From the NCBI GenBank assembly GCA_031279735.1, contig JAITHX010000122.1, forward strand, positions 1 to 30,245: a stretch of 30,245 nt of DNA. The letters run 5' to 3'. Under the pieces are notes generated by a model. It was not told the DNA's origin. It searched no databases and was given only the letters and a program-made list of their open reading frames with translations. This DNA comes from Prevotellaceae bacterium. Lineage in GTDB: Bacteria > Bacteroidota > Bacteroidia > Bacteroidales > UBA932. Positions 7,290 through 22,714 of the stretch are shown in pieces (positions within the stretch are counted from its first letter, which is position 1; each line of letters begins with the position of its first letter). A program made the position numbers and the translations under genes.

Positions 7290-7535
7290 TCAATTACGAA
7301 TTACGAATTACGAATTACGACCGGCTTCGGACGTATCAATTACGAATCAATTACGAATTACGAATTACGAATTACGACCGGCTTCGGACGTACGACCGAC
7401 AGGTCGTAATTCGTAATTCGTAATTCGTAATTGATAAGCCGGTCGTAATTCGTAATTCGTAATTCGTAATTGATACGTCCGAAGCCGGTCGTAATTCGTA
7501 ATTAGTAATTCGTAATTGATTTGTAATTCGTAATT
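7290..7535. repeat. AATTACG/CGTAATT heptamer arrays with an 18-bp linker forming a large inverted repeat
   Basis: (AATTACG)n blocks at 7292-7376 and (CGTAATT)n blocks at 7405-7535. Linker ACCGGCTTCGGACGTATC (7320-7337) has an exact reverse complement at 7472-7489. Apex TACGACC-GACA-GGTCGTA at 7391-7408. Confidence 0.95.
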
Positions 7536-7541
7536 GAAAAG

Positions 7542-8240
7542 ATGGAATACATACTGATATTTTTTATCCTGACCGCCTGCTTTCTGAAGCTCAGCTTCCG
7601 GAACATGCAGCAGTCGGTGATATTCGCTTTGCTGTGCGCCGTTTTCGTAGTATGGTCGTCGCGCTGGGCTGTTGCCCAGTCGAAAACACAGCTGTCGGAA
7701 CTGCTCGACAATCCGACCGCAATGCAGAATGCCGCCGTATTAATCACCGCCGAATCCGCAATCTGTTTTGCCTTTTGCTTCCGCGAACTTCGCGCGCGAT
7801 TCAGTGCGAAAAAGAGAAGCCTCACGGAAACACTGCTCCGCCTTTATCCCGGGCTACTGTTGTTTCCCGTCCTGTTTTACCTTCATACGCAACTGATTTT
7901 CGCCATGCCCGGAAGCAACTTCACCCTATTGTCGCATGCATTTGCAGGCGTTGTAGCCCTTGCCTTGCCATTGCTGAGCTTTCTCGTCAAACGGTTGTGG
8001 CGCGAAAGGGAAGCGCGGCTGGAAATTTACTTTATAGTCTGTCTGTTCGTGTGCATCGTCGGACTGATAGCAACCGTCAACGGAAACACAACATATTCCG
8101 CCGTAAAAACTCAGGTAAACATAAAAGCCCTGCTGTTGTCGGTCGGGCTTTGTATTCTGCTCTTCCTGCTTGGCGTCCTGACAAGCAGATATAAATGGAC
8201 TTTTAAAAATCGTATAAATAAAAATGGAACTGATATCTAA
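7542..8240 (+). CDS. hmuT: HmuT-like multi-pass membrane protein
   Basis: Several hydrophobic helices and a YPGLL motif. Position between hmuS and the MotA/ExbB gene. Confidence 0.7.
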   Translation: MEYILIFFILTACFLKLSFRNMQQSVIFALLCAVFVVWSSRWAVAQSKTQLSELLDNPTAMQNAAVLITAESAICFAFCFRELRARFSAKKRSLTETLLRLYPGLLLFPVLFYLHTQLIFAMPGSNFTLLSHAFAGVVALALPLLSFLVKRLWREREARLEIYFIVCLFVCIVGLIATVNGNTTYSAVKTQVNIKALLLSVGLCILLFLLGVLTSRYKWTFKNRINKNGTDI

Positions 8241-8817
8241 ATCTTTATTCTGGCTGGCAAACAGCCTTCTGATTCCCGACATCATTCTGCTGCTTATTCT
8301 GTTCGGACGAGCCTTGCTGCTCGCCGGCGGATTCTACAGTCAGATGACGGTGAAACGCCGTAATGATGCGCTTTTCGACAGAAAAATAAAAGAACTGTCG
8401 CCCGCAACAGCAAGCGAACTGAACTCGCTGCTGCCCGAAAAGGACGATTCTCTTTTTGTGAAATACCTGCGCGATCTGCTCGCCTCCACACCGGACGAAG
8501 CCTATTCGGATTACCTGCTGTCGAGTCTCGAAAACGAGATACACAAAGACTTGGCTCTCTCGAAACTTCTGGCGAAAACAGGTCCCGTTCTCGGACTTAT
8601 CGGCACGCTGATAGCCATGAGTCCGGCGCTGGTCGGACTGTCCGCCGGCGACATTTCAGGCATGGCATACAACATGCAGGTAGTGTTCGCCACTACGGTA
8701 GTCGGACTGGTTGTCAGTCTTGTCGGGCTGGTGACGCTTCAATTCAAACAGCGCTGGTATGCAAAGGACGTTTACAGTCTGGAATATGTTTCACGAATAC
8801 TGAACGGCAGACGATGA
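8224..8817 (+). CDS. hmuU: MotA/TolQ/ExbB proton-channel family protein HmuU
   Basis: GPVLGLIGTLIAM and AFATT-like VVFATTVVGL motifs. Overlaps hmuT and hmuV. Confidence 0.85.
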   Translation: MELISKSLFWLANSLLIPDIILLLILFGRALLLAGGFYSQMTVKRRNDALFDRKIKELSPATASELNSLLPEKDDSLFVKYLRDLLASTPDEAYSDYLLSSLENEIHKDLALSKLLAKTGPVLGLIGTLIAMSPALVGLSAGDISGMAYNMQVVFATTVVGLVVSLVGLVTLQFKQRWYAKDVYSLEYVSRILNGRR

Positions 8818-9149
8818 GAAACAGCCGCCGCTCCGGTAAACTTCTCAAGGAGGACGACGGAGACCCGCTCAGCGTAGTGGTCAATTTATTCGACGTGGCG
8901 ATGGTCTTTGCCGTCGCCCTGATGGTTGCAATGGCGATACACCTGAACATGACGGAAGTTTTCACGCAGGAAGACTTCACCATAGTCAAAAACCCAGGCA
9001 AGGACAATATGGAAATCATCACAAAAGAAGGCAATAAGATCAATAAATACACTCCGTCCGACAACCAGTCGTCCGAAAAAACGAAAGGCAGGCGAGTAGG
9101 CGTAGCATACGAACTCGAAAACGGAGAAATCATATATATACCGGAGTAA
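8814..9149 (+). CDS. hmuV: DUF2149-family protein HmuV
   Basis: DPLSVVVNLFDVAMVF N-terminal motif and G...GVAYELENGEIIYIPE C-terminus. ATGA overlap with hmuU. Confidence 0.85.
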   Translation: MRNSRRSGKLLKEDDGDPLSVVVNLFDVAMVFAVALMVAMAIHLNMTEVFTQEDFTIVKNPGKDNMEIITKEGNKINKYTPSDNQSSEKTKGRRVGVAYELENGEIIYIPE

Positions 9150-9281
9150 ATTAAGAATTAAGAATTAAGAATTAAGAATTGCCTGCGGACGCGGGAGAAT
9201 TACGAATTATAAATTACGAATTACGAATTACGAATTGCCTGCGGACGCGGGAGAATTACGAATTACATATTACGAATTACG
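9149..9281 (+). repeat. AATTAAG/AATTACG heptamer arrays punctuated by two copies of GCCTGCGGACGCGGGAG
   Basis: Four AATTAAG units from 9149, linker 9181-9197, five AATTACG-type units, identical linker 9237-9253, four more units. Confidence 0.95.
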
Positions 9282-9283
9282 AA

Positions 9284-9411
9284 GCGAAGCCTTCGTGTTT
9301 CTTCGTGCCTTCTTCGTGTTTCTTCGTGTTTCTTCGTGTAACAAACACGCAACAAAAATATTATTACACGAAGAAACACGACGAAGACGCGAAGAAACAC
9401 GAAGGCTTCGC
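9284..9411. repeat. TTCTTCGTGT decamer array with an inverted copy (hairpin)
   Basis: Left arm 9284-9341 and right arm 9364-9411. GCGAAGCCTTCGTGTTTCTTCG pairs with CGAAGAAACACGAAGGCTTCGC. Confidence 0.9.
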
Positions 9412-9420
9412 CGGTATGAG

Positions 9421-9713
9421 GGTGGGGTGTCCAAAATCCCGTATCAATCTTTAAAATCTTCCTCCCGTTTTTCACCGCGTTGCGGTGTTTTTTTAACCGC
9501 TAAGGGCGGCTTCGCAGAGAACGCAAGGGCTTCGCGTCCTTTGCGCTGTGTGTGTGTCGCAAAGGACGCGAAGCCCTTGCGTTCTCTGCGAAGCCTCTGC
9601 GCCCTTAGCGTTTATAAAAAACACCGCAACGCGGTGAAAGCCGAGTGGAAGATTTTAAGACTTGCCCCCGTATTTTGGACACCCCACCCCATACCCCATA
9701 CCCTATACCCTAT
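9421..9713. repeat. Nested palindromic REP/REPIN-like element, likely bidirectional terminator of the hmu operon
   Basis: Perfect 38-bp stem 9508-9545/9558-9595 with a 12-nt loop. Outer stem 9471-9493/9616-9638. Outermost arms GGGGTGTCCAAAAT.../...ATTTTGGACACCCC, followed by a CCCCATA array. Confidence 0.93.
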
Positions 9714-9775
9714 ATTTAATCGTGTAAAAACCCTTGTTCGTCGATTTTCGGAGTGTTCGGACGTGCGATTAGGCG

Positions 9776-9783
9776 TATCTTTG
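9776..9783 (+). promoter_or_regulatory. Bacteroidota -7 promoter element
   Basis: TATCTTTG matches TAnnTTTG, 45 nt before the ATG at 9829. Confidence 0.7.
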
Positions 9784-9828
9784 CGCTATGTTTTTTATTA
9801 ATGAACAACAGGTATTAAAACAAAAGTT

Positions 9829-10584
9829 ATGGTTAAGACACATGGCAATTATGGCAATTCGAGAGTGACGCTGGGAATAGCGCTCATAGTGGTAGGGGCG
9901 CTGCTGGCGGCGCTTAATTTCAACGTGCTTCCCGCAAAGGCGGGCAGTATAATCTATTCGTGGCAGATGTTGCTGATTGTTATCGGGACGGTGTCGCTGT
10001 TCAGGCGGCGCGTTCTGTCGGGCGTGATACTGATGGTTATCGGCTGCTTTTTCATGGTTCCGCGTCTGGGACGGCTTTATCCCGAATCGTTTCCGGCGGC
10101 GGATACTTTCGTGTCGCTCTACTGGCCTCTGCTTCTCGTTTTCGCGGGGATTCTTGTGCTTGTCTTTCGGGCGCGCGGCAGGCGGCATCGTTCCGAGCGG
10201 TTCCGCTGCATGAAGAGCAGGTTGAGCGAGAGCGGGAAGCGGTATCCGGTGAACGAGGATTTTCGCAAGGTGAACGTTTTCGGCTACGGCGAGTATTTCG
10301 TCATGGACACCGAGTTCAACGGCGGCACGCTGACGGCGGTTTTCGGAGGGATGGAGGTTGATCTGCGCAAGGCGCTGCTGCCCGAAGGCGATACGTATCT
10401 TAAGGTAGAGATGGTGTTCAGCGGTCTCACTCTGTTCATCTCGGAGGAATGGACGGTCGATACGCAAATCGAAGTGGTTGCGGGAGGAATAGAAGACCGC
10501 CGCAAGGGCCGGACTGATTCGAGGGGACGACGGCTGATCATCTTCGGTTCGGTGGTGTTCGGCGGCGTCGAAATTAAAAACTGA
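9829..10584 (+). CDS. LiaF-like membrane protein (N-terminal TM region, C-terminal DUF2154-type domain)
   Basis: GIALIVVGALL, SWQMLLIVIG and YWPLLLVFAG TM pattern. C-terminal F.GG....VFGGMEVDLR...GGIED...VVFGGVEIKN. Confidence 0.78.
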   Translation: MVKTHGNYGNSRVTLGIALIVVGALLAALNFNVLPAKAGSIIYSWQMLLIVIGTVSLFRRRVLSGVILMVIGCFFMVPRLGRLYPESFPAADTFVSLYWPLLLVFAGILVLVFRARGRRHRSERFRCMKSRLSESGKRYPVNEDFRKVNVFGYGEYFVMDTEFNGGTLTAVFGGMEVDLRKALLPEGDTYLKVEMVFSGLTLFISEEWTVDTQIEVVAGGIEDRRKGRTDSRGRRLIIFGSVVFGGVEIKN

Positions 10585-10601
10585 CATAGCATCTGCCTCT
10601 T

Positions 10602-11510
10602 ATGCCCGAGAACAACCCGAAAAACATTATATACGTCTTGTCGTGGACGGTTTATGCGGCGCTGCATCTGGCTTCGACCTGTCCGCTGGTCGATGTGCCG
10701 CTTGAGCTGCTTGCTGTTGATGCGTGCCTGCACGCCGCGCTGTTTGCCGCTCTGGGTCTGGCAATACGTTTCGTGCTGCGCTATGCGAAGTGCGAAACTT
10801 TGCCGCCCGCGCGCCGATATTCCAACTTCGGCGTGCTTGCGCTTCTTACTGTTGCGCTCTGGACGGGAACGTGCTGGGCGGCGGAATACGCGCTGTTCGA
10901 TGAAACGGCTCTCGCGTTCGTCCCCCTGCTGCCTGTCAGGGCGCTGACAGGGCTTATGTTCTACGCGGTTGTCGTGCTTTTCTTCTACGTGACCGGCGGG
11001 CATGTCAACCCCGACAAGAACAAACTCATGATCGATGCCGGATTCGGCTACGTTCCGGAACGCGACGCGAACATCGCTGCCGAACCGGAACGCGAACCGG
11101 AACGCGAACCGGAACCGGAACGCGGATTGGAACCGGAATCGGAAGTCAAGCCCGACAGGAACTGCGACACGGAAGCGGAGATACCCGGTCGGGTCACGGT
11201 GAAGGTAAAGCAGAAGATACATCTCATTCCGCTGAGCGACATTGTATATCTGCAATCCTGCGGCGACTACGTGCAGATTATCACTCCGACGGGGAAATAT
11301 CTGAAAGAGCGCACAATGAAGTATTTCGAGGAGCATCTGCCCCGCGCTTCGTTCGTGCGTATTCACCGTTCATACATAATAAATGTGGACTACATTTCGA
11401 GCATCGAATCGGCAGGGCGTCAGAGTCAGCAGGTTTCGCTCAAAACGGGCGAATGGCTAAACGTCAGCATTACGGGTTACAAAGCCCTGAAAGCAGTTCT
11501 GAATTTGTAG
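10602..11510 (+). CDS. Membrane-anchored LytTR-domain transcriptional regulator (no receiver domain)
   Basis: About 4 N-terminal hydrophobic helices, an EPER-rich linker, and a C-terminal LytTR domain (IVYLQSCGDYV, FVRIHRSYIIN). Confidence 0.85.
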   Translation: MPENNPKNIIYVLSWTVYAALHLASTCPLVDVPLELLAVDACLHAALFAALGLAIRFVLRYAKCETLPPARRYSNFGVLALLTVALWTGTCWAAEYALFDETALAFVPLLPVRALTGLMFYAVVVLFFYVTGGHVNPDKNKLMIDAGFGYVPERDANIAAEPEREPEREPEPERGLEPESEVKPDRNCDTEAEIPGRVTVKVKQKIHLIPLSDIVYLQSCGDYVQIITPTGKYLKERTMKYFEEHLPRASFVRIHRSYIINVDYISSIESAGRQSQQVSLKTGEWLNVSITGYKALKAVLNL

Positions 11511-11518
11511 AAAAGTAT

Positions 11519-11526
11519 TATCTTTG
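11519..11526 (+). promoter_or_regulatory. Bacteroidota -7 promoter element for argC
   Basis: TATCTTTG 21 nt upstream of the argC ATG. Confidence 0.7.
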
Positions 11527-11547
11527 CGCGAATTTTTTTAAAAACAC

Positions 11548-12534
11548 ATGCGAAACAGGCAAACTAAACCAAGCGTGGGAATAGTCGGCGGCACGGGCTA
11601 CACCGCCGGCGAACTGCTGAGAATACTCGTCAATCATCCCAAGGTCGAAATAAAGTTCGTATTCAGCAGGTCGAATCCGGGCGCGGCGGTCACGTCGGCG
11701 CATACCGACCTCGCCGGCGACCTCGACTTGCGCTTTACGAACAAACTCGAACCGGCGGACTTTCTTTTTCTGTGTCTTGGTCACGGGGTGTCACGCAGCT
11801 TTCTCGCCGAAAACCCCGTCGGCTCCGAAACGAGAATCATCGATCTCGGTTCGGACTTCCGCGTGAATTCCACCGACGATTCGGGACGACAGTTTGTTTA
11901 CGGGCTGCCCGAACTGCGCTCGGCGGCGATAGCCGAAGCGCGGAACATCGCAAATCCGGGATGCTTCGCCACCGCGATCCAGCTGGCGCTGCTTCCCGTC
12001 GTCGAACTCCTCGCGCCGGAACACGAGATTCACGTCAACGCCGTTACAGGTTCGACGGGGGCGGGGCGCACGCTGAGCGAAACCTCCCATTTCAGCTCCC
12101 GCGAAAGCAACATGTCGATCTACAACCCGTTTACCCACCGGCATCTCGACGAAATCACCGCAACGCTGAAAACCCTATCGCCCGCGCTTCCCGAAATAAA
12201 CTTCATCCCCGTGCGCGGAAACTTCACGCGGGGCATATTCGCATCAGTCTATACCCGCTGTCGGGCAGACGAAAGCGAAATACGCCGACGCTACGAGGAT
12301 TATTACGCCGACAGTCCGTTCACCCATGTTGTCGGCAAGGCTCCCTGCCTGAAAGACGCGCTCAATACCAACAAATGCCTGCTCAACGCAACATGCTACG
12401 GCGACAGGCTGTTAATAGTGAGCGTCATCGACAATCTTTTGAAAGGCGCATCAGGGCAAGCGGTTCAGAACATGAATCTGATGGCTGGCTTCGCTGCGGA
12501 CTGCGGACTGCGGCTGAAACCCTCCGGATTTTAG
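11548..12534 (+). CDS. argC: N-acetyl-gamma-glutamyl-phosphate reductase
   Basis: VGIVGGTGYTAGEL Rossmann motif, NPGCF catalytic Cys, GSTGAG, and DNLLKGASGQAVQNMN. Confidence 0.96.
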   Translation: MRNRQTKPSVGIVGGTGYTAGELLRILVNHPKVEIKFVFSRSNPGAAVTSAHTDLAGDLDLRFTNKLEPADFLFLCLGHGVSRSFLAENPVGSETRIIDLGSDFRVNSTDDSGRQFVYGLPELRSAAIAEARNIANPGCFATAIQLALLPVVELLAPEHEIHVNAVTGSTGAGRTLSETSHFSSRESNMSIYNPFTHRHLDEITATLKTLSPALPEINFIPVRGNFTRGIFASVYTRCRADESEIRRRYEDYYADSPFTHVVGKAPCLKDALNTNKCLLNATCYGDRLLIVSVIDNLLKGASGQAVQNMNLMAGFAADCGLRLKPSGF

Positions 12535-12650
12535 GAATTAAGTTATGAATTATGAATTATGAATTATGAATTGCCTGTCGGAGGTGAGGAGGGTTAAGAA
12601 ATTAAGAATTAAGAATTGCCTGCCGGAGGCGAGGATGATTGAGAATTATG
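12535..12650 (+). repeat. AATTATG/AATTAAG heptamer arrays with two GCCTGYCGGAGGYGAGGA linkers
   Basis: Begins immediately after the argC TAG. Linkers at 12573-12590 and 12618-12635. Confidence 0.92.
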
Positions 12651-12662
12651 GATACAACAATC

Positions 12663-12693
12663 GTATAACAACAGTATAACAACAGTATAACAA
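12663..12693 (+). repeat. GTATAACAACA 11-mer tandem repeat abutting the argG start codon
   Basis: Two perfect units plus a 9-nt partial unit ending at 12693. ATG at 12694. Confidence 0.85.
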
Positions 12694-13890
12694 ATGAAAA
12701 AAGTAGTATTGGCATTCAGCGGAGGACTGGACACATCGTTTTGCGTTCAGTATCTCAAGAACGAGAGAGGATTGGAAGTTCACACTGCATTGGTGGACAC
12801 CGGCGGATTCGACGAGGCGGAACTCGCCGACATAGAAAAGCGGGCGATAGACCTCGGCGCGGCAACGCACGTGAATATCGACCGCGCGCAGGAATTTTAC
12901 GAAAAGGGAATACGATATATGCTTTTCGGCAATTCTCTGCGTCAAAACACCTATCCGCTTTCGGTGAGTTCGGAGCGCATCTTTCAGGCACTCGCCATAG
13001 TGGAGTATGCGCGCGAAATCGGCGCTTCCTACGTGGCTCACGGAAGCACGGGCGCCGGCAACGATCAGGTGCGTTTCGATCTGGTGTTTCAGGTCATGGC
13101 GCCGGAGATAGAAATCATCACTCCCATACGCGAGCTGAGGCTTGCAAGGCACGAGGAAATAGACTATCTCGCCCGACACGGCTTTTCGTTCAGCCGCGAA
13201 AAGGCGAAGTATTCCATCAATCGCGGATTGTGGGGCACGAGCGTGGGCGGAGCCGAAACGCTTGTTTCCGACGGAGTGCTGCCCGAATCGGCGTATCCCG
13301 CCGCCGCCGCAGCCGAGGGAAGCGAAACCGTAACGGTGCGATTTGAACGCGGCGAACCGCGCGGGCTGAACGGCAGCGACATGCAGCCCGTAGCCCTCAT
13401 TCGCGAACTGGAGCGCATTGCGGCAGCTTACGGCGCGGGACGCGACACGCATGTCGGCGACACCATCATCGGCATCAAGGGGCGCGTAGGGTTTCAGGCT
13501 GCGGCAGCACTCATCCTCATCAACGCTCACCGGCTGCTCGAAAAACACGTGCTGACGAAATGGCAGCAGTACTGGAAAGACCAGATAGGCAACTGGTACG
13601 GGATGATGATGCACGAAGCTCAGTATCTCGATCCGGTGATGCGCGACATGGAGGCATATCTCGAATCCTCGCAACGATACGTTAGCGGCGAAGTCGATAT
13701 AGTTCTTCGCCCCTATCGCTTCAACGTCACGGGCTGTCGGAGCGAGCACGACCTCATGTCGTCGAAATTCGGCGAATACGGCGAAATCAACAAGGCGTTT
13801 ACCGGCGACGATGTCAAGGGGTTCACCCGCATACTGTCGAACCAGACGAAAATCTATTACGCCGTCAACTCGCCCGAAAAACAGGACTAA
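12694..13890 (+). CDS. argG: Argininosuccinate synthase
   Basis: VVLAFSGGLDTS PP-loop, HGSTGAGNDQVRF, and GLWGTSVGG. Confidence 0.96.
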   Translation: MKKVVLAFSGGLDTSFCVQYLKNERGLEVHTALVDTGGFDEAELADIEKRAIDLGAATHVNIDRAQEFYEKGIRYMLFGNSLRQNTYPLSVSSERIFQALAIVEYAREIGASYVAHGSTGAGNDQVRFDLVFQVMAPEIEIITPIRELRLARHEEIDYLARHGFSFSREKAKYSINRGLWGTSVGGAETLVSDGVLPESAYPAAAAAEGSETVTVRFERGEPRGLNGSDMQPVALIRELERIAAAYGAGRDTHVGDTIIGIKGRVGFQAAAALILINAHRLLEKHVLTKWQQYWKDQIGNWYGMMMHEAQYLDPVMRDMEAYLESSQRYVSGEVDIVLRPYRFNVTGCRSEHDLMSSKFGEYGEINKAFTGDDVKGFTRILSNQTKIYYAVNSPEKQD

Positions 13891-13902
13891 GAAACGGCGG
13901 AC

Positions 13903-14421
13903 ATGACTAAGGAAACACTGTCGCTCTCGATAAACTTCATCGTTCTGATTCTGTTGCAGGCTTTCCTGTTCAACGCTATGTATCTGGGCGTTTACGTCAG
14001 TCTGCAGCTTTATCTGATGTTCATAATTTTCCTGCCGGCGAAACTGCCCGCCATAACAGTAATGGTTCTGGCGGCAATCACGGGAATAACGACCGACCTG
14101 CTCTCGTCGGGCGATATAGGCTTGCATCTTGCCGCCTGCGTGGCAATGGCTTATATTCGTCCGTTCATGCTGTCGAAAACGTCGCCGACAGACATACAGT
14201 TCGAAATACCGGACCTCGATCTCCCTCATTTCAGCGAATATCTCCTGTATGTCGGAATACTCGTCCTGATGCACCACTCCGTCCTGTTTATCTTTGAGAG
14301 CTTGAGCTTTAAAGAATTCGGATACATCGTGGCGCGAATTTGCGCGAGCGCCGCAGTAAATATCTTTCTCATCTGTGTCATAAAGAGTATTCCGCCGATA
14401 GTGAAGCATAAAAAAAGATAA
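13903..14421 (+). CDS. mreD: Rod shape-determining protein MreD (Bacteroidota type), stand-alone
   Basis: 172-aa hydrophobic protein with LLQAFLFN, LY..FI..LP, G...D....G.H, MAYIRP and HH..LFIFE pattern recognised from Bacteroidota MreD. Confidence 0.68.
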   Translation: MTKETLSLSINFIVLILLQAFLFNAMYLGVYVSLQLYLMFIIFLPAKLPAITVMVLAAITGITTDLLSSGDIGLHLAACVAMAYIRPFMLSKTSPTDIQFEIPDLDLPHFSEYLLYVGILVLMHHSVLFIFESLSFKEFGYIVARICASAAVNIFLICVIKSIPPIVKHKKR

Positions 14422-14423
14422 CT

Positions 14424-15464
14424 ATGTATAATAACGACATTGGCATTCCGAACGGAGAATATTTCGGAATGACTTGCGGCGACGAAAGCGAGATTGAGAT
14501 AATATCGGTGCCGTGGGATGCAACGGTTTCCTTTGGCGCCGGTACATCCAAAGCGCCGCAGGCAATCATCGACGCTTCGATTCAAGTGGATTTGTTTGAT
14601 GCGGACGTTGAGAATGCATGGGAAATGAAACTCTCCTCGACTATGCTCGACCTCTCCCGCTTGAACGGGGAAACCAGACTTGCTGCCGCAGCGGTTATCA
14701 GCCGGCTCGAAAAGGGCTGCAAGACCTCCGATGCCGACGTCGCTCTCATGCTCGAACAGGTCAACGCGGCTTCAGAGCTTGTCAACGGCGCAGTGTACGA
14801 TGCGGCGAAGGATATTCTGGACAGGGGTAAAACGCCCGCTCTCGTCGGCGGCGACCACAGCGTCCCGTTCGGACTGATTAAGGCAGTAGCCGAAAGACAT
14901 CCGGGCGTCGGCATCCTGCATATCGACGCGCACGCCGACTTGCGATGCGCTTACGAAGGATTCGTACATTCGCACGCTTCGATAATGTATAACGTGACCG
15001 AGCGTATCGCCGGCGTAGCCAGACTTGTGCAGGTTGCCGTGAGGGACTTTTGCGAGGAGGAGCGGCTGCGTGTCGCCTCGTCCGGCGGCAGGATAGTGAT
15101 GTTTACCGACGACAGTCTGAAAGCGAACGAATACGAGGGTGTGACATGGAGCCGCCAATGCTCGGAAATAGTTTCCTGTCTGCCCGACAAGGTTTATGTC
15201 AGTTTCGACATCGACGGCTTGTGTCCCTCTCTCTGCCCCGGCACCGGCACTCCGGTGCCCGGCGGTCTGGACTTTCCGCAAGCCATGTATCTGCTGAAGC
15301 GTATCGCGTTCTCCGGACGGGAGATTGTGGGGTTCGACCTCTGCGAGGCGGCACCGCGTAAAATAGACGGCGAGACAGACGGCGAGACAGACGGATGGGA
15401 TGCGAACGTCGCCGCCCGCGCGCTCTTTAAATTATGCTGTTATACCCGTCGTTCCGGCAAATGA
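14424..15464 (+). CDS. speB: Agmatinase / ureohydrolase family protein
   Basis: VPWDATVSF, GGDHS, HIDAHADLR and SFDIDG...PGTGTPVPGG metal-binding motifs intact. Substrate not provable from sequence. Confidence 0.78.
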   Translation: MYNNDIGIPNGEYFGMTCGDESEIEIISVPWDATVSFGAGTSKAPQAIIDASIQVDLFDADVENAWEMKLSSTMLDLSRLNGETRLAAAAVISRLEKGCKTSDADVALMLEQVNAASELVNGAVYDAAKDILDRGKTPALVGGDHSVPFGLIKAVAERHPGVGILHIDAHADLRCAYEGFVHSHASIMYNVTERIAGVARLVQVAVRDFCEEERLRVASSGGRIVMFTDDSLKANEYEGVTWSRQCSEIVSCLPDKVYVSFDIDGLCPSLCPGTGTPVPGGLDFPQAMYLLKRIAFSGREIVGFDLCEAAPRKIDGETDGETDGWDANVAARALFKLCCYTRRSGK

Positions 15465-15486
15465 CGATTCAAACTCCCGCACCCGT

Positions 15487-16440
15487 ATGCCTGTAACCGT
15501 TCCGCATGGCTTCCCCGCCGCCGAATATCTGAAAAGCGAGCATATTGCGGTCGATGAGCCGACAGCGGCACATTCTTTGTCTGCTCCGTCGTCCGCTCCG
15601 TCGTTCGCTCCGTCGTTCGCTCTGCGTCTTGCCGTTCTCAATCTGATGCCGATGAAGCGGGAAACGGAAGCGGACTTGCTGCGTCTGTTTTCAAATTCTC
15701 CCCTGCGGATAGAGATAGACTGGGTGCGCCCCGGCACGCATGTATCTAAAAACACGCCCGCCGAACATCTGCGCGAGTACTACGCGGTGATAGACGATGT
15801 GAAGGATCGGCTCTACGACGGATTCGTGGTGACAGGCGCTCCGGTCGAGCATCTCGAATTTGAAGCGGTGGACTACTGGGACGAAATCGCGGAGTTTCTC
15901 GACAGGATGCGTACCCGCGCGGGCGCTTCGCTGTTTGTCTGCTGGGCGGCTCAAGCCGCGCTCTATCACTATTACGGCGTGAGGAAATATCCGCTGCCGA
16001 ACAAGATGTTCGGAGTGTTCGAGCATACGGTCGGCGACGCGGCGAATCCTCTGTTCAGGGGTTTCGACGATGTGTTCTACGCGCCCCACAGCCGCTACAC
16101 GGAAATACGCAGGGAGGAGGTGCTGGCGGTGCCGGAACTGAGGCTTGTGTCCGAATCCGACGAAGCCGGCGTGTATGTCGTTCAGTCGCGCAACGGACGG
16201 GAAACGTTCGTGACCGGTCACTCGGAATACGCGCCCGACACCCTGCACAAGGAGTATTTGCGCGATGTGGCGAAGAATCTCCCGATCGACCCGCCCCGAA
16301 ATTACTATCCCCACGATAATCCCGACAATCCGCCGACGGTGCGCTGGCGGTCTCACGCAAACCTTTTGTTTGTCAACTGGCTTAATTATTGCGTGCTTAA
16401 AAATGCCCGCCCCCGCAACAACAATATCGAACTTTTATGA
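15487..16440 (+). CDS. metA: Homoserine O-acyltransferase MetA family (acetyl-specific signature)
   Basis: Start [11 protein letters not shown] (ORF-track start 15400 overlaps the upstream gene). LNLMP, TGAPVE, CWAAQA catalytic Cys, PHSR, and GHSEY catalytic His. Confidence 0.93.
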
Positions 16441-17138
16441 GACTGATACCCGCAATAGACATAATGGACGGCAAATGCGTGCGCCTCACCAGAGGCGACT
16501 ACTCCACAAGGAAGGTCTATAACGAAAACCCTCTCGATACGGCGAAGGAATTTGAAGCCGCCGGAATAAAATATCTGCACCTTGTCGATCTCGACGGAGC
16601 AAAATCCAGTCACATTGTCAACCACAGAGTTCTGGAGCAAATAGCGCGACACACCTCCCTGCAAATCGACTTCGGCGGAGGTCTCAAATCGGACGACGAT
16701 CTGCGCATCGCCTTCGACTGCGGCGCCGCACAGATAACGGCGGGAAGCATAGCCGTGAAGAATCCCGACCTGTTTCTGCAATGGCTTGACAAATACGGAG
16801 CCGACAGAATTATACTCGGAGCCGACAGCGCAAATCGCAAGATAGCGACTTCGGGCTGGCTGCAAACCTCGTCGCTCGACGTGCTGGACTTCATCTCGAT
16901 GCACGAGAAAAACGGAGTGAAATATGTGATATGCACCGATATCGACAGAGACGGAATGTTGCGCGGTCCCTCGTTTGAACTCTATGCCGAAATACTGCAA
17001 ACAACGTCCGTGCATCTGATAGCGAGCGGAGGAGTTTCGTGCATAGCCGACTTGCACCGTCTCGAAGAAACGGGATGCGAAGGCGTTATCATAGGCAAGG
17101 CGCTATATGAAGGGAGAATCACTCTCGATGAATTATAG
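16437..17138 (+). CDS. hisA: ProFAR isomerase (histidine biosynthesis)
   Basis: [43 protein letters not shown] and IIGKALYEG. Confidence 0.93.
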
Positions 17139-17163
17139 GGTATGGGGTATGGGGCGCTTCGCC
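17134..17163 (-). repeat. Inverted copy of the CCCCATA-array module overlapping the hisA stop codon
   Basis: TATAGGGTATGGGGTATGGGGCGCTTCGCC is the reverse complement of 97-126 with one mismatch. Confidence 0.88.
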
Positions 17164-17213
17164 TGATGGCAGGGATTCTATCTCTGTCTTTCCATGCCGA
17201 TACCCTACATCCG

Positions 17214-17325
17214 TTTTTCACCGCGTTGCGGTGTTTTTTTTACCGCAAAGGACGCAGAGGCATCGCAAAGGGCGCCAGGGCTTCGCGTCCTTTGCGGTAA
17301 AAAAACACCGCAACGCGGTGAAAAA
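17214..17325. terminator. REP-like palindrome; probable bidirectional intrinsic terminator after hisA
   Basis: Core CACCGCGTTGCGGTG (17219-17233) followed by a T8 tract. Inverted core at 17306-17320 preceded by an A7 tract. Arms of about 41 bp pair with one bulge. Confidence 0.78.
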
Positions 17326-17371
17326 TTATATTTCTGTGCAACGAACTTTTAAAGGATGACGAATAAATAAC

Positions 17372-17474
17372 TTAGCACACAGATAACACAGATAACACAG
17401 ATAACACGGATGACACAGATTTACGCGAATTTAAATCTGTATCGTCTGTATCGTCTGTATTATCTGCGTGCTGA
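17372..17474. repeat. ACACAGATA nonamer array with a degenerate inverted copy
   Basis: Left arm TTAGCAC(ACAGATAAC)n...GATTTA at 17372-17423. Right arm TAAATC(TGTATCGTC)n...GTGCTGA at 17432-17474. Confidence 0.85.
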
Positions 17475-17499
17475 AAACCCGAAAGTATCCTTTATAAGT

Positions 17500-17526
17500 G
17501 GTTCTGCTGGGAATTGTGTGGAAAAG
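17500..17526 (+). repeat. Third copy of a 27-28-bp TIR-like motif GGTTCTRCTGGRAATTGTGTGGAAAA
   Basis: Direct copy at 18164-18191 and inverted copy at 17850-17877. Confidence 0.8.
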
Positions 17527-17579
17527 CCATAAAACCCTTATTTTTCAAAGGTACCTTAGCAGCATCCGGACAGCATGTA

Positions 17580-17878
17580 TTCACCCTTATTCCCCTATTA
17601 AGGGATTAAGGGATCGTGCGGTTATTCACCGCGTCGCGGTGTTTTTTCACCGCAGAGGACGCAGAGGCTTCGCAAGGGGCGCAGAGGCTTCGCGACCTTT
17701 GCGCAAGGTCGCCGGAGGCTGCGGGTCAAGCCCTCAATACTTGTAATCGCGCGCCCTTCGCAAAGGACGCGAAGCCCTTGCGCCCTTTGCGAAGCCCTTG
17801 CGCCCCTTGCGTTACAAAAACACCGCAACGCGGTGAAAAGACACGCAAACTTTTTCCGCACAATTCCCAGTAGAACCT
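17580..17878. repeat. Left arm (about 300 bp) of a long inverted duplication, containing a REPIN-like hairpin 17625-17837
   Basis: Aligns by eye along its full length to the reverse complement of 18163-18452, with scattered substitutions and small indels. Confidence 0.93.
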
Positions 17879-17945
17879 TATAAGTTATTTGTTCGACATC
17901 CCTTAATTCGCGAAACCATGTCGAAAAACATATCGAACCTTATTT

Positions 17946-17997
17946 ATAGGAAGGATATAGGAAGGATATAGGAAGGATATAGGAAGGATACAGGAAG
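17946..17997 (+). repeat. ATAGGAAGGAT 11-mer tandem repeat
   Basis: Four perfect units (17946-17989) plus a degenerate partial unit. Confidence 0.93.
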
Positions 17998-18162
17998 ACC
18001 GAAAAAAGTCCGACAACGTTTGAACTTGCAATGCGCTACAGTGGGGCAGCGAAAAATGACGAAGCAAAACACACTTAAGCGCTGTTGGTTACAAACGACC
18101 CAAAACAGGCAAATCCTGCCGAAGAACATATCGCCGCGAAAAGAATTTTCAGGACAACATTT

Positions 18163-18452
18163 AGGTTCTACTGGAAATTGTGTGGAAAAAGTTTGCGTGT
18201 TTTTTCACCGCGTTGCGGTGTTTTTGTAACGCAATGGGCGCAAGGGCTTCGCAAAGGGCGCAAGGGCTTCGCGTCCTTTGCGAAAGGCGCGCGGTTACGA
18301 TTCTTGAGGGCTTGACCCGCAGCCTCCGGCGACCTTGCGCAAAGGACGCGAAGCCTCTGCGCCCCTTGCGAAGCCTTTGCGTCCTCTGCGGTGAGAAAAC
18401 ACCGCGACGCGGTGAAAACCGCACAATCCCTTAATAAGGGAATAAGGGTGAA
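18163..18452. repeat. Right arm (about 290 bp) of the long inverted duplication, containing a REPIN-like hairpin 18204-18416
   Basis: Inverted counterpart of 17580-17878. Confidence 0.93.
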
Positions 18453-19055
18453 CACTTATTATAAATAAGAATGGAGTATTTAACTTAAGGCACACATCGC
18501 TTAACAGTCGCGGAACGGGCTATCCCGTTCTTCTGCGCGAAGGGAGAACGTTTTTTTTGAATAAACGGACAGGCGGCTACGTTCCTTAAGTAAAAATGGG
18601 CTATATTTAACTTAAGATTTACGTTTGAAAAACGTTAAATGGGGCGATTTTAACAATTCTTTACGCGAATTTAACGTTTTAGTTTTAACACTCTTTTGCC
18701 TTATTATTTTTAACAAAAAGGGGTATTTACAGTATTAAACGGCTTTAGAATGAATGGAATAACTATATTTAAGTTTCTTAAATTCTAATCTCTTTCAGAA
18801 AAATTATATAAGCAAGATTCCGGCGTTTGCATCAAAGGCTTTAACTTATTGACTAATTTGGTGTAACAGCTGATTTTTTCGGTCGAATGGAAAGAGCGAT
18901 TCCTCCGTTGAAATTTACAACGCATTGTTTCATAACCGTTTATTTTGCAAGCCGATGAAGGCGCGTTGCCGTTCGGCTGAGGTTAAAAATGGTTAAGGGC
19001 GGTATTTATATTGTTAATAGTTATTTCCTTTGTGTCAATAAGCATTGGATGTAAA

Positions 19056-21715: not shown

Positions 21716-22714
21716 GTGCACCCTTATCGGAAAAAACTTTTCGCGGAACTGTCGGGAATCCTGCCGGCGCGACTTGTGTTTTGTTTCCGGTTCTGTTTCC
21801 GGTTTTGTTTCCGGTTTTGTTTCTTGTTCTGTTTCCTGTTCTGTCTCTTGCCCTCCGCCGGCGTCTATGCTCAGATAACTTCCTATTCTCAGGAACAAAA
21901 GGATCCTGCGGAAGAAGAGGCAAAAAACATCGAAGTCAAAGAACGAAAAAGCTATATAAAGGGTCTCAAAGGCACGGATTCGCTTTCGATAAGCCGGGTC
22001 GTCACAGCATCGATGCTTGTGCCGGGCTACGCTCAGGCATACAACAGACAGTACTGGAAAATTCCGGCGCTCTACGCAGGGGGAGCGGCATTGATTTACG
22101 GCGGAGCGCGAAGCAATGCGCTGTACAGGCAAACGGGCAAAGAGAGATACCTCTCCCAAAGCAAATACTGTTACGCGGGAGCGGGCTTGTTCTATCTTGC
22201 GGGTCTCATCGACGGACTGACAAACTACAAAACTCCGAAAGGCGTTATCGTCCCCGTAAAAGCCACGTTTTATTCCGCTTTTCTGCCCGGGCTCGGACAA
22301 GCCTACAACGGGGACTACTGGAAGATACCTCTCATTTACGGCGGGTTTGCTTTCTGGGCATACTGGCTCGACATTAACGCCATGCAGTACAACCGGTTTC
22401 GCAACGCCTACAATATAGAGGACGCGCGCGCTAAGGGCGACACGGAACAGACAAGCGAGTTCGAGGGACGGCTGTCGCTGGAAAGCATCAGAAGCTATCG
22501 CGACAGTTACAGGCGCCAGAGAGACTATGCCGTTCTGTATCTTGCTCTCTGGTATGCGGTGAATATCGTTGACGCAACGGTATTCGCTCAATTGAGCAAT
22601 TTCGACGTAAGCGAAAATCTTTCGTTCAATATTTCGCCGGCGCTGATACCTTTGAATTTGTATGCACAAGGCGAACCGGCAATAGGATTCAACTTGAAGA
22701 TAGGATTAAAATAA
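21716..22714 (+). CDS. DUF5683-family membrane protein with a duplicated motif
   Basis: PG(Y/L)(A/G)QAYN..YWKIP twice and NIVDATVFAQL.NFDVSENLS near the C-terminus. Usual position after parB in Bacteroidota. GTG start uncertain. Confidence 0.75.
   Translation: MHPYRKKLFAELSGILPARLVFCFRFCFRFCFRFCFLFCFLFCLLPSAGVYAQITSYSQEQKDPAEEEAKNIEVKERKSYIKGLKGTDSLSISRVVTASMLVPGYAQAYNRQYWKIPALYAGGAALIYGGARSNALYRQTGKERYLSQSKYCYAGAGLFYLAGLIDGLTNYKTPKGVIVPVKATFYSAFLPGLGQAYNGDYWKIPLIYGGFAFWAYWLDINAMQYNRFRNAYNIEDARAKGDTEQTSEFEGRLSLESIRSYRDSYRRQRDYAVLYLALWYAVNIVDATVFAQLSNFDVSENLSFNISPALIPLNLYAQGEPAIGFNLKIGLK

Follow-up and report, generated by a model that had tools for sequence, protein, structure and literature searches.

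Intergenic repeat blocks in a termite-gut Bacteroidales genome are probably stacks of small palindromic insertion elements that lack genes

Results

Three intergenic blocks in a 30,245-nucleotide stretch of a Prevotellaceae genome (the window) are, in our judgment, probably stacks of small palindromic insertion elements that carry no genes, belong to several genome-wide families, nest in one another and abut stop codons. These families have probably proliferated in a termite-gut Bacteroidales lineage. An earlier note on this DNA had described unrelated "vocabularies" of repeat units, each built as array, loop and inverted array, and had proposed one copying mechanism for all, analogous to REP/REPIN and RAYT. 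These vocabularies turned out to be separate elements, dispersed through the genome and nested within one another (Table 1). Two families are ordinary miniature transposons (MITEs), and the others use a mirrored layout of repeats that, in related bacteria, surrounds two small gene families. The dispersal of non-autonomous elements at gene 3' ends survives from the earlier interpretation, but not the REPIN/RAYT analogy or the single mechanism.

Table 1. Positions of repeat features in the window
Feature	Position	Strand	Description
Composite AATTACG heptamer hairpin	7290..7537	.	Fills the junction between a CobN-family (hmuS-like) gene and the next ORF
Direct heptamer block	9149..9283	+	(AATTAAG)4, linker TTGCCTGCGGACGCGGGAG, (AATTACG)5, linker TTGCCTGCGGACGCGGGAG, (AATTACG)4
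10-mer (TTCTTCGTGT / ACACGAAGAA) hairpin element	9284..9411	.	Bounded by GCGAAGCC...GGCTTCGC
Layered palindrome	9412..9714	.	Outer arms around GC-rich palindrome 9468-9640
Direct heptamer block	12535..12650	+	(AATTATG)4, linker, (AATTAAG)3, linker; directly after argC stop
11-mer array GTATAACAACA, 2.8 units	12663..12693	+	Just upstream of argG start
(GGGTATG)3 array	17131..17154	+	Overlaps hisA stop codon
Free-standing GC-rich palindromic element	17214..17325	.	T-module, CGCAAAGGA/CGCAGAGGC units, loop, mirror image
9-mer (ACACAGATA) hairpin MITE, left and main part	17343..17499	.	Diverged left TIR, array, apex, inverted array
380-bp ISL3-derived MITE	17500..17877	+	26-bp TIR GGTTCTACTGGGAATTGTGTGGAAAA; carries GC-rich palindrome 17625-17837
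Right TIR TATTTGTTCGACATCCCT of interrupted 9-mer MITE	17886..17905	.	Compared with family consensus
11-mer array TATAGGAAGGA, 4.8 units	17945..17997	+	In the 258-bp stretch separating the two 380-bp MITE copies
Second, inverted copy of ISL3-derived MITE	18164..18455	-	Lacks first ~78 nt; own GC-rich palindrome 18202-18418

Five very stable hairpins, made of tandem units of 7-11 nt, were found in the window. Their RNA folds had energies of -45 to -149 kcal/mol (z = -8.3 to -18.2), and 0 of 200 shuffled sequences folded as well. The AATTACG hairpin at 7290-7537 (58-nt arms, 98% complementary; dG -148.5 kcal/mol, z -18.2) consists of arrays with a mirrored linker, CGACCGGCTTCGGACGTATC, on both arms and an apex near 7391-7408, while the 10-mer hairpin at 9284-9411 has 46-nt arms that are 93% complementary (dG -78.9, z -14.3). 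In the layered palindrome that follows, the outer arms carry GGGTGGGGTGTCCAAAAT... / ...ATTTTGGACACCCCACCCCAT together with ACCCCAT/ACCCTAT arrays, and the GC-rich core, capped on either side by a terminator-like T-module, has perfect arms of 38 nt (9508-9545 / 9558-9595); this inner part folds with dG -85 and z -13.4. Palindromes of the same GC-rich, CGCAAAGG type lie at 9468-9640, 17214-17325 (dG -81.6, z -12.8), 17625-17837 and 18202-18418. The terminal modules that the earlier note saw as shared between hairpins are indeed common to them: CACCGCGTTGCGGTG plus a T-run was counted 139 times in the genome, 8 of them in the window. On both strands this module reads as a GC stem and then a T-run.

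The plan of array, loop and inverted array held at 7290-7537, 9284-9411 and 17377-17469 (an inverted pair of ACACAGATA arrays), but not at 9149-9283 and 12535-12650. Because the latter two blocks have no inverted partner and fold weakly (z = -4.9 and -2.7, respectively), they are array-plus-linker direct repeats outside that plan. The first of them begins on the TAA stop of a DUF2149 gene, and its linker recurs 42 times on 20 contigs. Also set aside was a description of the CGCAAAGGA-type blocks at 17580-18452 as free-standing arrays; they are two copies of the 380-bp MITE, one of them truncated.

The source is a termite-gut Bacteroidales MAG of 259 contigs, 62.6% complete, whose contigs break at these repeats. 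Short arrays make up 17% of its intergenic DNA. The repeats are far too numerous for chance and not confined to the window: there are 943 AATTACG doublets, on 113 of 259 contigs, 1044 period-7 TRF rows and 312 inverted pairs of the same unit (gap of 150 nt or less). The AATTACG and CACGAAG hairpins recur at dispersed sites in stereotyped form, each around a conserved centre that is not repetitive. The AATTACG family has 71 strict copies with a 26-31-nt centre, and its modal count of 4+4 units argues for copying rather than independent growth. The CACGAAG hairpin measures ~125 bp. The 10-mer hairpin, a dispersed element of ~125 bp, has at least 17 copies, a flippable AT-rich loop and a usual position within ACCCCAT arrays. 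The 11-mer TATAGGAAGGA forms 8 doublets on 5 contigs.

Could the hairpins be fold-back chimeras or collapsed repeats of a metagenome bin? The MAG is fragmented, 178 of its 518 contig ends lie inside arrays, and among the independent Logan contigs from the termite-gut run behind the MAG not one crosses an array from end to end, so that unit counts are the MAG assembly's own. However, those same contigs reproduce the gene-to-array junctions at 7490-8484 and 8652-9172, the arms are imperfect and vary between copies, and the same mirrored designs are present in other taxa whose genomes are complete; we find an artefact scarcely credible. Repeat k-mer depth was 100-700x that of single-copy genes.

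Two families are MITEs. In the first, of ~150 bp, the 9-mer hairpin (ACACAGATG, ACACAGATA/G) forms the core, the TIRs are 22 bp long and the target-site duplication is TNA. There are 26 complete copies of this 9-mer MITE, 131-195 bp long, with a 3-bp TNA duplication; its family TIR, GGGATGTGTTAGAAATAACTTA, has 152 matches on 98 contigs. In a comparison with 60 relatives, 131 TIR matches were counted here and at most one in each relative. A TIR search of this genome and the 60 relatives revealed no autonomous partner. By ISfinder rules, the TNA duplication suggests a putative IS5/IS1031-like type. The second family, the 380-bp MITE, has sharp ends, ~22 near-full copies and 139 TIR matches, many of them at contig ends. 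An ISL3-family insertion sequence of a same-genus genome has matching 26-bp ends and 8-bp duplications, and there the same TIR lies downstream of the C-terminus of an ISL3 transposase (G005:C279). Another genome (G002) carries a 230-bp version with perfect 8-bp duplications but no palindrome. In the window the 380-bp MITE sits inside the 9-mer MITE, flanked by the duplication TTATAAGT at 17492-17499 and 17878-17885. Nesting is mutual, since a 9-mer MITE was also found inside the loop of a 10-mer hairpin.

Two comparisons of filled and empty sites bear on mobility. One paralogous MITE copy (C176) holds at its apex a complete 135-bp element, a 9-mer element, whereas 11 other aligned copies are empty, which shows mobility and insertion as a unit. 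The repeats are also lineage-specific: at the argC-argG junction the spacer is 159 nt here, compared with 31-43 nt, array-free, in 10 of 10 same-genus genomes; judged from these spacers, the heptamer block at 12535-12650 is an insertion relative to all ten, so that repeats are not identical in position and length across relatives.

Conversely, the GTATAACAACA array in the same spacer has a single doublet in the whole genome, and relatives carry ...GATAACAG...ATAAACATG at its site; it probably arose by local slippage of the ancestral spacer. This unique array favors an account without mobility, in which arrays grow by slippage in situ in a slippage-prone lineage and gain inverted partners by intra-strand template switching (palindrome growth). 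So do the different top units of each same-genus species, the 966 in-frame arrays within ORFs, which imply that a general slippage-prone background contributes, and changes within the arms. Among aligned MITE copies there were flipped loops, single-arm gains of 20 nt and a 293-bp fully palindromic variant; after insertion, single arms gain or lose units, loops are inverted, and one arm can be replaced by a mirrored copy of its partner. Nevertheless, slippage as the whole explanation is quite unlikely, given that many loci have non-repetitive centres and linkers in common, as well as termini of 22-26 bp and target duplications, and given the single filled MITE copy and the modal 4+4 hairpin. 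The earlier note had judged slippage insufficient; whole-element insertion and common centres and termini bear this out, although slippage and arm mirroring also contribute.

Placement at gene 3' ends was confirmed: an array lies between -25 and +100 nt of 28% of 3' ends, and of these 385 arrays 201 begin before the stop codon or no more than 5 nt beyond it. Hairpins occupy 25% of convergent spacers versus 8-9% of tandem or divergent ones. This placement, the extreme stability of the stems, the two-stranded T-module and the presence of an RNase III gene would suit hairpins that were mainly selected RNA signals, i.e., bidirectional terminators, mRNA 3' stabilizers or intra-operon RNase III sites. 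The sense-strand fold was also the more stable in 77 cases versus 44 (p = 0.008), a weak bias among copies that are not independent. We consider selection for such signals unlikely as the main cause, however: the ten same-genus species have no hairpins at argC-argG, hairpins also occur in divergent spacers, within other repeats and 6 nt before an intra-operon start codon, and copy number and nesting look parasitic.

The earlier note placed heptamer arrays beside IVP genes and 9-mer-type arrays beside GxxExxY genes, and both associations proved sound. In other genomes, 25 of 40 IVP genes (19/29 + 6/11) lie between inverted arrays of the same unit, versus 0 of 25 control genes; this is the standardized count, and looser counts were also made. 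The flanks are AATTAAG/CTTAATT for a same-genus IVP gene (L197) and AATTAAG/CGTAATT for a Planctomycetota one. GxxExxY genes in other genomes are framed by CGCAAAG, CGCAGAGG, CACAGAG, CACGAAG and CGCGGAT units, and also by TTTTCACCGC...GCGGTGAAAA ends. In other genomes such repeats thus do frame recurrent protein families.

It does not follow that these proteins are the autonomous partners. Across phyla each gene copy is paired tightly and specifically with a unit of its own, as one would expect if IVP or GxxExxY proteins, from genes elsewhere in the genome or the community, recognized the units and drove copying or homing of cargo-bearing and gene-less hairpins alike. IVP genes occur in 7 of 12 same-genus genomes, and GxxExxY has a PD-(D/E)XK nuclease fold (PMC3424549). 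Against this, neither gene was found in the 62.6%-complete MAG despite hundreds of hairpins, and array density does not follow IVP count (33 period-7 arrays per 100 kb in G009 with 1 IVP gene, 12 in G026 with 12), and we regard such a role as improbable.

Discussion

We favor stacked insertion elements as the explanation of these blocks. Since they share units and layout with the cassettes of relatives, the hairpin cores may be cargo-less versions of "array, gene, inverted array" cassettes of IVP (PF05635) or GxxExxY (PF13366); the link would rest on those common features rather than on a deletion series traced in the lineage, and short AT-rich or CGCAAAG-like units could have converged. Spread would have been partly by hitch-hiking in MITEs of DDE transposases and partly by another route. 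Once transcribed, stems of -45 to -150 kcal/mol might serve as processing sites of terminator-like or RNase III type. Their position at stop codons may reflect a TNA/AT-rich target preference together with tolerance, because arrays containing stop trinucleotides close whatever reading frame enters them after a few units.

Instead of one common copying mechanism, at least two transposase types and a further mechanism appear to be involved. Mobilization in trans by a RAYT (Y1, IS200/IS605-like) transposase is very improbable, even though palindromic structure, intergenic position, high copy number and frequent inverted doublets would fit it, and the small CACCGCGTTGCGGTG hairpin is REP-like. The Y1/RAYT family (PF01797) had zero matches in the 62.6%-complete genome, each arm is a tandem array, not a single REP, and the long TIRs and 8-bp or TNA duplications of two families are characteristic of DDE enzymes, one family being tied to an ISL3 transposase. 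Genes for IVP, GxxExxY, RAYT and the ISL3 transposase were all looked for in the 62.6%-complete MAG and not found, so the analogy fails.

Some likeness to proteobacterial REP/BIME and REPIN-RAYT systems (PMC3116915) remains, in the high-copy intergenic palindromes, inverted doublets, 3'-end placement and terminator-like potential; array arms, DDE-type ends and duplications in two families, and the failure to find a RAYT gene set the present elements apart. DDE-derived MITEs are closer, with TIRs, target-site duplications, lengths of 130-380 bp without an ORF and tens to >100 copies, and one family here has an end in common with a transposase gene of a related genome. However, the interiors here are long palindromes of tandem 9-20-nt units with other hairpins nested at their apices, and no transposase for them came to light in the MAG.

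The cyanobacterial STRR (short tandemly repeated repetitive) heptamers and small dispersed repeats of Nostocales offer another parallel, with intergenic tandem arrays in which small hairpin modules are embedded. The ACCCCAT unit resembles cyanobacterial STRR1, and exact (AATTACG)4 is present in many Nostocales genomes. Unlike STRR, the arrays here have a Bacteroidales host and form inverted pairs and nested palindromes.

The 23S rRNA IVS (S23p / 23S_rRNA_IVP, PF05635), which is ORF-bearing or short and ORF-less, differs in lying in rRNA helices, whereas the present elements lie between protein-coding genes, have arms of 7-11-nt tandem arrays and, unlike the ORF-bearing IVS, come from a genome in which no IVP gene was found. 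As in the IVS, however, inverted arms form a long stem, a small four-helix-bundle gene or only a short loop lies between them, host function is undisturbed by insertion, and the product is an expected RNase III substrate.

Hairpin Elements in the Window

The three intergenic repeat blocks are best read as stacks of nested palindromic insertion elements that carry no genes. TRF and an inverted-repeat search located inverted pairs of arrays built from 7-, 10- and 9-nt units, together with four GC-rich palindromes of the CGCAAAGG type. Here, as in IVS-type cassettes, inverted arms made of one tandem unit form a long stem, and RNA folds of the window hairpins ranged from -45 to -149 kcal/mol (z -8.3 to -18.2). 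An earlier note had described at least four repeat units as each built from an array, a loop and an inverted array. Extended to every block, this description fits the inverted pairs and palindromes but is only partly true, because two heptamer blocks consist of direct arrays with linker repeats, without an inverted partner, and fold weakly.

Coordinates of repeat features in the window
Feature	Positions	Identified by
ACCCCAT arrays at contig start (unit shared with 9686-9714)	1-133	
AATTACG inverted array pair	7290-7537	TRF + inverted-repeat search
Heptamer block, direct array + linker repeats	9149-9283	
TTCTTCGTGT inverted array pair (10-mer)	9284-9411	TRF + inverted-repeat search
Heptamer block, direct array + linker repeats	12535-12650	
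9-mer MITE, interrupted by ISL3-type MITE	17343-17499 and 17886-17905	
ACACAGATA inverted array pair (9-mer)	17377-17469	TRF + inverted-repeat search
ISL3-type MITE, 380 bp	17500-17877	
Non-coding stretch, 258 bp	17906-18163	
ISL3-type MITE, second copy, inverted and truncated	18164-18455	
In-frame 6-/12-nt tandem repeats in ordinary genes	11081-11144, 15365-15394, 15579-15622, 21777-21850	

Two familiar explanations for such arrays were rejected. The units of 7-20 nt run head-to-tail with constant linkers, whereas a CRISPR array would have 24-48-nt repeats with unique spacers, and the arrays sit after stop codons rather than in the promoters or 5' coding regions where phase variation would place them. 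A scan of the whole window against Rfam gave zero family matches.

Two Families Are MITEs with Array-Hairpin Interiors

Two of the element families are best interpreted as standard MITEs of the DDE type, with array hairpins as their interiors. The ISL3-type MITE has sharp, recurrent ends formed by a 26-bp terminal inverted repeat (TIR), GGTTCTACTGGGAATTGTGTGGAAAA, with 139 matches in the genome under study (G000), many of them 50-200 nt from contig ends; about 22 copies are near full length, at 77-94% identity. Its target-site duplications are 8 bp long (TTATAAGT in the window and AGAATTAA on contig C178), and many older copies have none. The form in the same-genus genome G002 is 230 bp long and lacks the GC-rich palindrome, and its 8-bp duplications (TGCAAAAT and ATTTAAAA) are both perfect. 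In another genome of the genus (G005:C279), the TIR of this MITE comes immediately after the C-terminus of an ISL3-family transposase. The second window copy, being inverted and truncated, explains an apparent 870-bp inverted duplication, which we had considered as one unit and rejected. The stretch separating the two copies lacks recognisable element ends and includes an 11-mer array of 4.8 units (TATAGGAAGGA), of which there are eight doublets on five contigs genome-wide.

A second MITE, of 131-195 bp with a 22-bp TIR, GGGATGTGTTAGAAATAACTTA, is built around the 9-mer hairpin. This TIR has 152 matches on 98 contigs, is essentially private to G000 in comparison with 61 related genomes, and bounds 26 complete copies; a 3-bp TNA duplication accompanies about 20 of 24. 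No autonomous, transposase-coding partner was found in the 61 genomes.

The AATTACG hairpin has the form TC(AATTACG)n, a conserved centre of 26-31 nt with a GTAC apex, and (CGTAATT)nGA. There are 71 strict copies, most commonly with 4+4 units, and the hairpin frequently sits in the 9-mer MITE, nested at its apex. The 10-mer hairpin is a unit of about 125 bp with at least 17 copies, usually nested between inverted ACCCCAT arrays; its loop occurs in either orientation, and in two copies a 9-mer MITE is inserted there. The GC-rich palindromes carry CACCGCGTTGCGGTG and a T-run at both ends, giving the pattern of an intrinsic terminator on both strands. The CACCGCGTTGCGGTG modules form inverted doublets, but they enclose arrays and lie inside MITEs.

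Contig ends repeatedly show one order (for example C38:92, C65:24, C70:36, C172:233 and C256:146), i.e., MITE end, CTTTCTTTC, AATTACG hairpin, GAAAGAAAG, MITE end, which suggests either tandem MITEs left unseparated by the assembly or a composite unit of larger size.

Transposition, Slippage, Loop Inversion and Arm Mirroring

In an alignment of 12 ISL3-type MITE copies, only the one on contig C176 has a complete 9-mer element of 135 bp, precisely at the apex of its palindrome; the element is absent from the remaining 11. Among the other copies, units of 20 nt have been gained or lost on a single arm, the central segment has been inverted, or a mirrored right arm has taken the place of the left to give a full palindrome of 293 bp. 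Taken together, the C176 insertion and these arm and loop differences document transposition, slippage, loop inversion and arm mirroring. This perfect long palindrome, a variant of 284-293 bp, lies at C12:3924-4216, C72:6910-7202 and C103:5211-5494; its left half has been exchanged for a mirrored right half, a clean example of arm-to-arm conversion.

One orthologous spacer is filled in G000 and empty in relatives: that between argC and argG is 159 nt long in G000, as against 31-43 nt and free of arrays in all 10 same-genus genomes (10/10). A unique 11-mer array beside argG seemingly arose from the ancestral spacer, so that some arrays are local. In G009, the closest relative, repeats also follow the CobN-family gene (L128, C103:3210-3800), with partly different units: GCAGAAA/GCAGAAG heptamers, tandem units of about 40 nt, a CACAGATG-type hairpin and a CGCAAAGGG palindrome. 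At another G009 locus (L152, C135, ~894-2990), homologues of the ORF at 7542-8240 and of the ExbB-like gene, which overlap in G000, are about 2.1 kb apart; sequence has been inserted between them in G009.

Tandem repeats also occur in frame within ordinary genes of the window, i.e., those for a LytTR regulator, an arginase-family/HTS region and a DUF5683 protein, and 966 short arrays lie inside ORFs across G000. The lineage therefore looks generally prone to slippage, independently of the hairpin elements.

Genome-Wide Extent and Placement

The earlier note had called for every unit to be mapped genome-wide, and the repeats did prove to be genome-wide. TRF returned 3559 rows for G000, 1044 of them of period 7. 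AATTACG forms 237 arrays on 112 contigs, 153 of which belong to inverted pairs; other units are AATTATG (173 arrays), AATTAAG (152), AACCACT (98), ACACAGATG (80) and AACAATT (80). Inverted pairs of one unit with a gap of at most 150 nt number 312. The density of period-7 arrays was 51 per 100 kb in G000, 33 in G009 and 17 in G011 (both same genus), and 12 in G026 and 1 in G018 (both same family).

By a rough ORF-based gene map, arrays make up 17% of intergenic and 1.6% of coding DNA, and 800 of 1025 period-7 arrays are intergenic. An array lies between -25 and +100 nt of 28% of gene 3' ends (n = 385 arrays), and 201 of these 385 begin either upstream of the stop codon or at most 5 nt beyond it; arrays lie further from start codons than from stops. 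Hairpins occupy 25% of convergent spacers, as against 8-9% of tandem or divergent ones. The fold on the sense strand is favoured in 77 cases versus 44, a weak bias among copies that are not independent.

G000, of which the window is contig C131, is a metagenome-assembled genome of 2.03 Mb in 259 contigs, 62.6% complete. Its contigs end inside arrays in 178 of 518 cases, and many further ends lie inside the ISL3-type MITE; arrays and this MITE are the cause of its fragmentation. The window encodes a TonB-dependent receptor with a CarboxypepD_reg domain, HmuY, a CobN-family chelatase, an ExbB-like protein, DUF2149, argC, argG, hisA, ParAB and DUF5683; HmuY, the receptor and DUF5683 mark this gene content as that of Bacteroidota. 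Most of the window is present in one public run only, a termite gut metagenome, and none of the RNA runs contains the locus. Logan contigs from this source run reproduced the gene-to-array junctions but stopped short of spanning the arrays, so that array lengths were not confirmed by them; the depth of repeat k-mers was 100-700 times that of single-copy genes. A second public run (X2), from a different sample, contains a relative whose contigs differ by about 4-8% in nucleotides; the repeats of G000 reach very high depth there, and contigs break at the shared gene/array boundaries 12533 and 9151.

Inverted Arrays Frame IVP and GxxExxY Genes in Other Genomes

Exact (AATTACG)4 occurs in genomes of Nostocales, Planktothrix, several Bacteroidota, Acidobacteriota, Planctomycetota and Chloroflexota. 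In five genomes carrying it, 25 of 30 sampled genes of the four-helix-bundle IVP family (PF05635) lay between two short arrays, mostly of one unit inverted, the unit differing from gene to gene. In same-order genomes, six of them of the same genus, 24 of 25 IVP genes had arrays on both sides, 17 being strictly inverted. When one rule was applied throughout (arrays no further than 200 nt from either end of the ORF, both of one unit, inverted), the counts were 19/29 and 6/11 for IVP genes, compared with 0/25 for response regulators of those genomes, which bears out the earlier note's statement that heptamer arrays flank IVP genes. The arms are AATTAAG/CTTAATT at an IVP gene of the same genus (G011:C263) and AATTAAG/CGTAATT at one from Planctomycetota.

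The note's companion statement, that 9-mer-type arrays flank nuclease-fold GxxExxY genes (PF13366), was also correct: such genes have CGCAAAG, CGCAGAGG, CACAGAG, CACGAAG or CGCGGAT arrays on either side in inverted orientation, one being additionally bounded by TTTTCACCGC...GCGGTGAAAA ends. The window has these arm units as its GC-rich, 9-mer and 10-mer vocabularies.

Of 12 same-genus genomes, 7 carry IVP genes. G000, at 62.6% completeness, gave zero matches to PF05635, PF13366, PF01797 (RAYT) or PF01610 (ISL3 transposase), and the ORFs enclosed by its distant inverted arrays included no recurrent family, being either ordinary genes or spurious frames that run across repeats. Because the assembly is incomplete and breaks exactly at hairpin repeats, these absences are weak evidence. 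As IVP and GxxExxY genes lie between arms in relatives and neither was found in G000, the window copies are at most gene-less derivatives.

Discussion

The hairpin cores are probably cargo-less derivatives of IVP/GxxExxY cassettes, whose design and units they share. A plausible, predicted role for the hairpins is as terminators or RNase III sites, to which the T-module pattern, the extreme stability of the stems, the RNase III gene found in G000 and the slight sense-strand bias point. Going further, we offer as a tentative and rather unlikely scheme that array-armed hairpins constitute a distinct class of selfish cassette found across phyla, in which the IVP or GxxExxY cargo would work on its own tandem-unit arms, G000 would represent a MITE-like, gene-less stage with hundreds of copies, and the same process would explain STRR.

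Repeats between bacterial genes, REP, BIME and STRR among them, are common markers that are poorly explained; to our knowledge, the heptamers of cyanobacterial STRR have long lacked an explanation. The record in G000 is unusually dense and recent, with nested elements and paralogous filled and empty sites, and it tells apart MITE transposition, slippage and arm mirroring. It further connects the hairpin vocabularies with the arms around two large, uncharacterised protein families, which thereby gain a concrete candidate nucleic-acid partner, and it suggests an origin for tandem heptamer repeats in very different phyla. In practical terms, such repeats account for the strong fragmentation of MAGs from this genus. 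In the literature searched, array-armed IVP/GxxExxY cassettes are not described outside rRNA, and searches for the AATTACG string and STRR gave nothing relevant.

Among known systems, a RAYT gene flanked by repeats is the feature of REPIN-RAYT, and G000 (62.6% complete) has no match to PF01797, leaving the common REP/REPIN-like mechanism first proposed unsupported. REPINs also pair two short inverted REP palindromes as a hairpin doublet; the CACCGCGTTGCGGTG doublets of G000 enclose arrays and lie within MITEs. IVS-type cassettes share inverted arms of the same unit, although no PF05635 or PF13366 gene was found between the arms in G000. In IVS, RNase III cuts the stem out of the transcript; G000 has an RNase III gene. 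Like STRR, the repeats here are intergenic tandem heptamers at many loci, but the STRR hosts are heterocystous cyanobacteria, whereas here the gene content is that of Bacteroidota and the source a termite gut. The GC-rich stem-loop and T-run of an intrinsic terminator are matched, as judged from sequence, by eight putative T-modules in the window, on one or other strand. With DDE-derived MITEs, two families share TIRs with recurrent sharp ends (26 and 22 bp), duplications of fixed length (8 bp for the ISL3-type and 3-bp TNA for the 9-mer MITE), and presence/absence polymorphism, seen in the 9-mer element confined to C176 and in the interrupted 9-mer MITE of the window.
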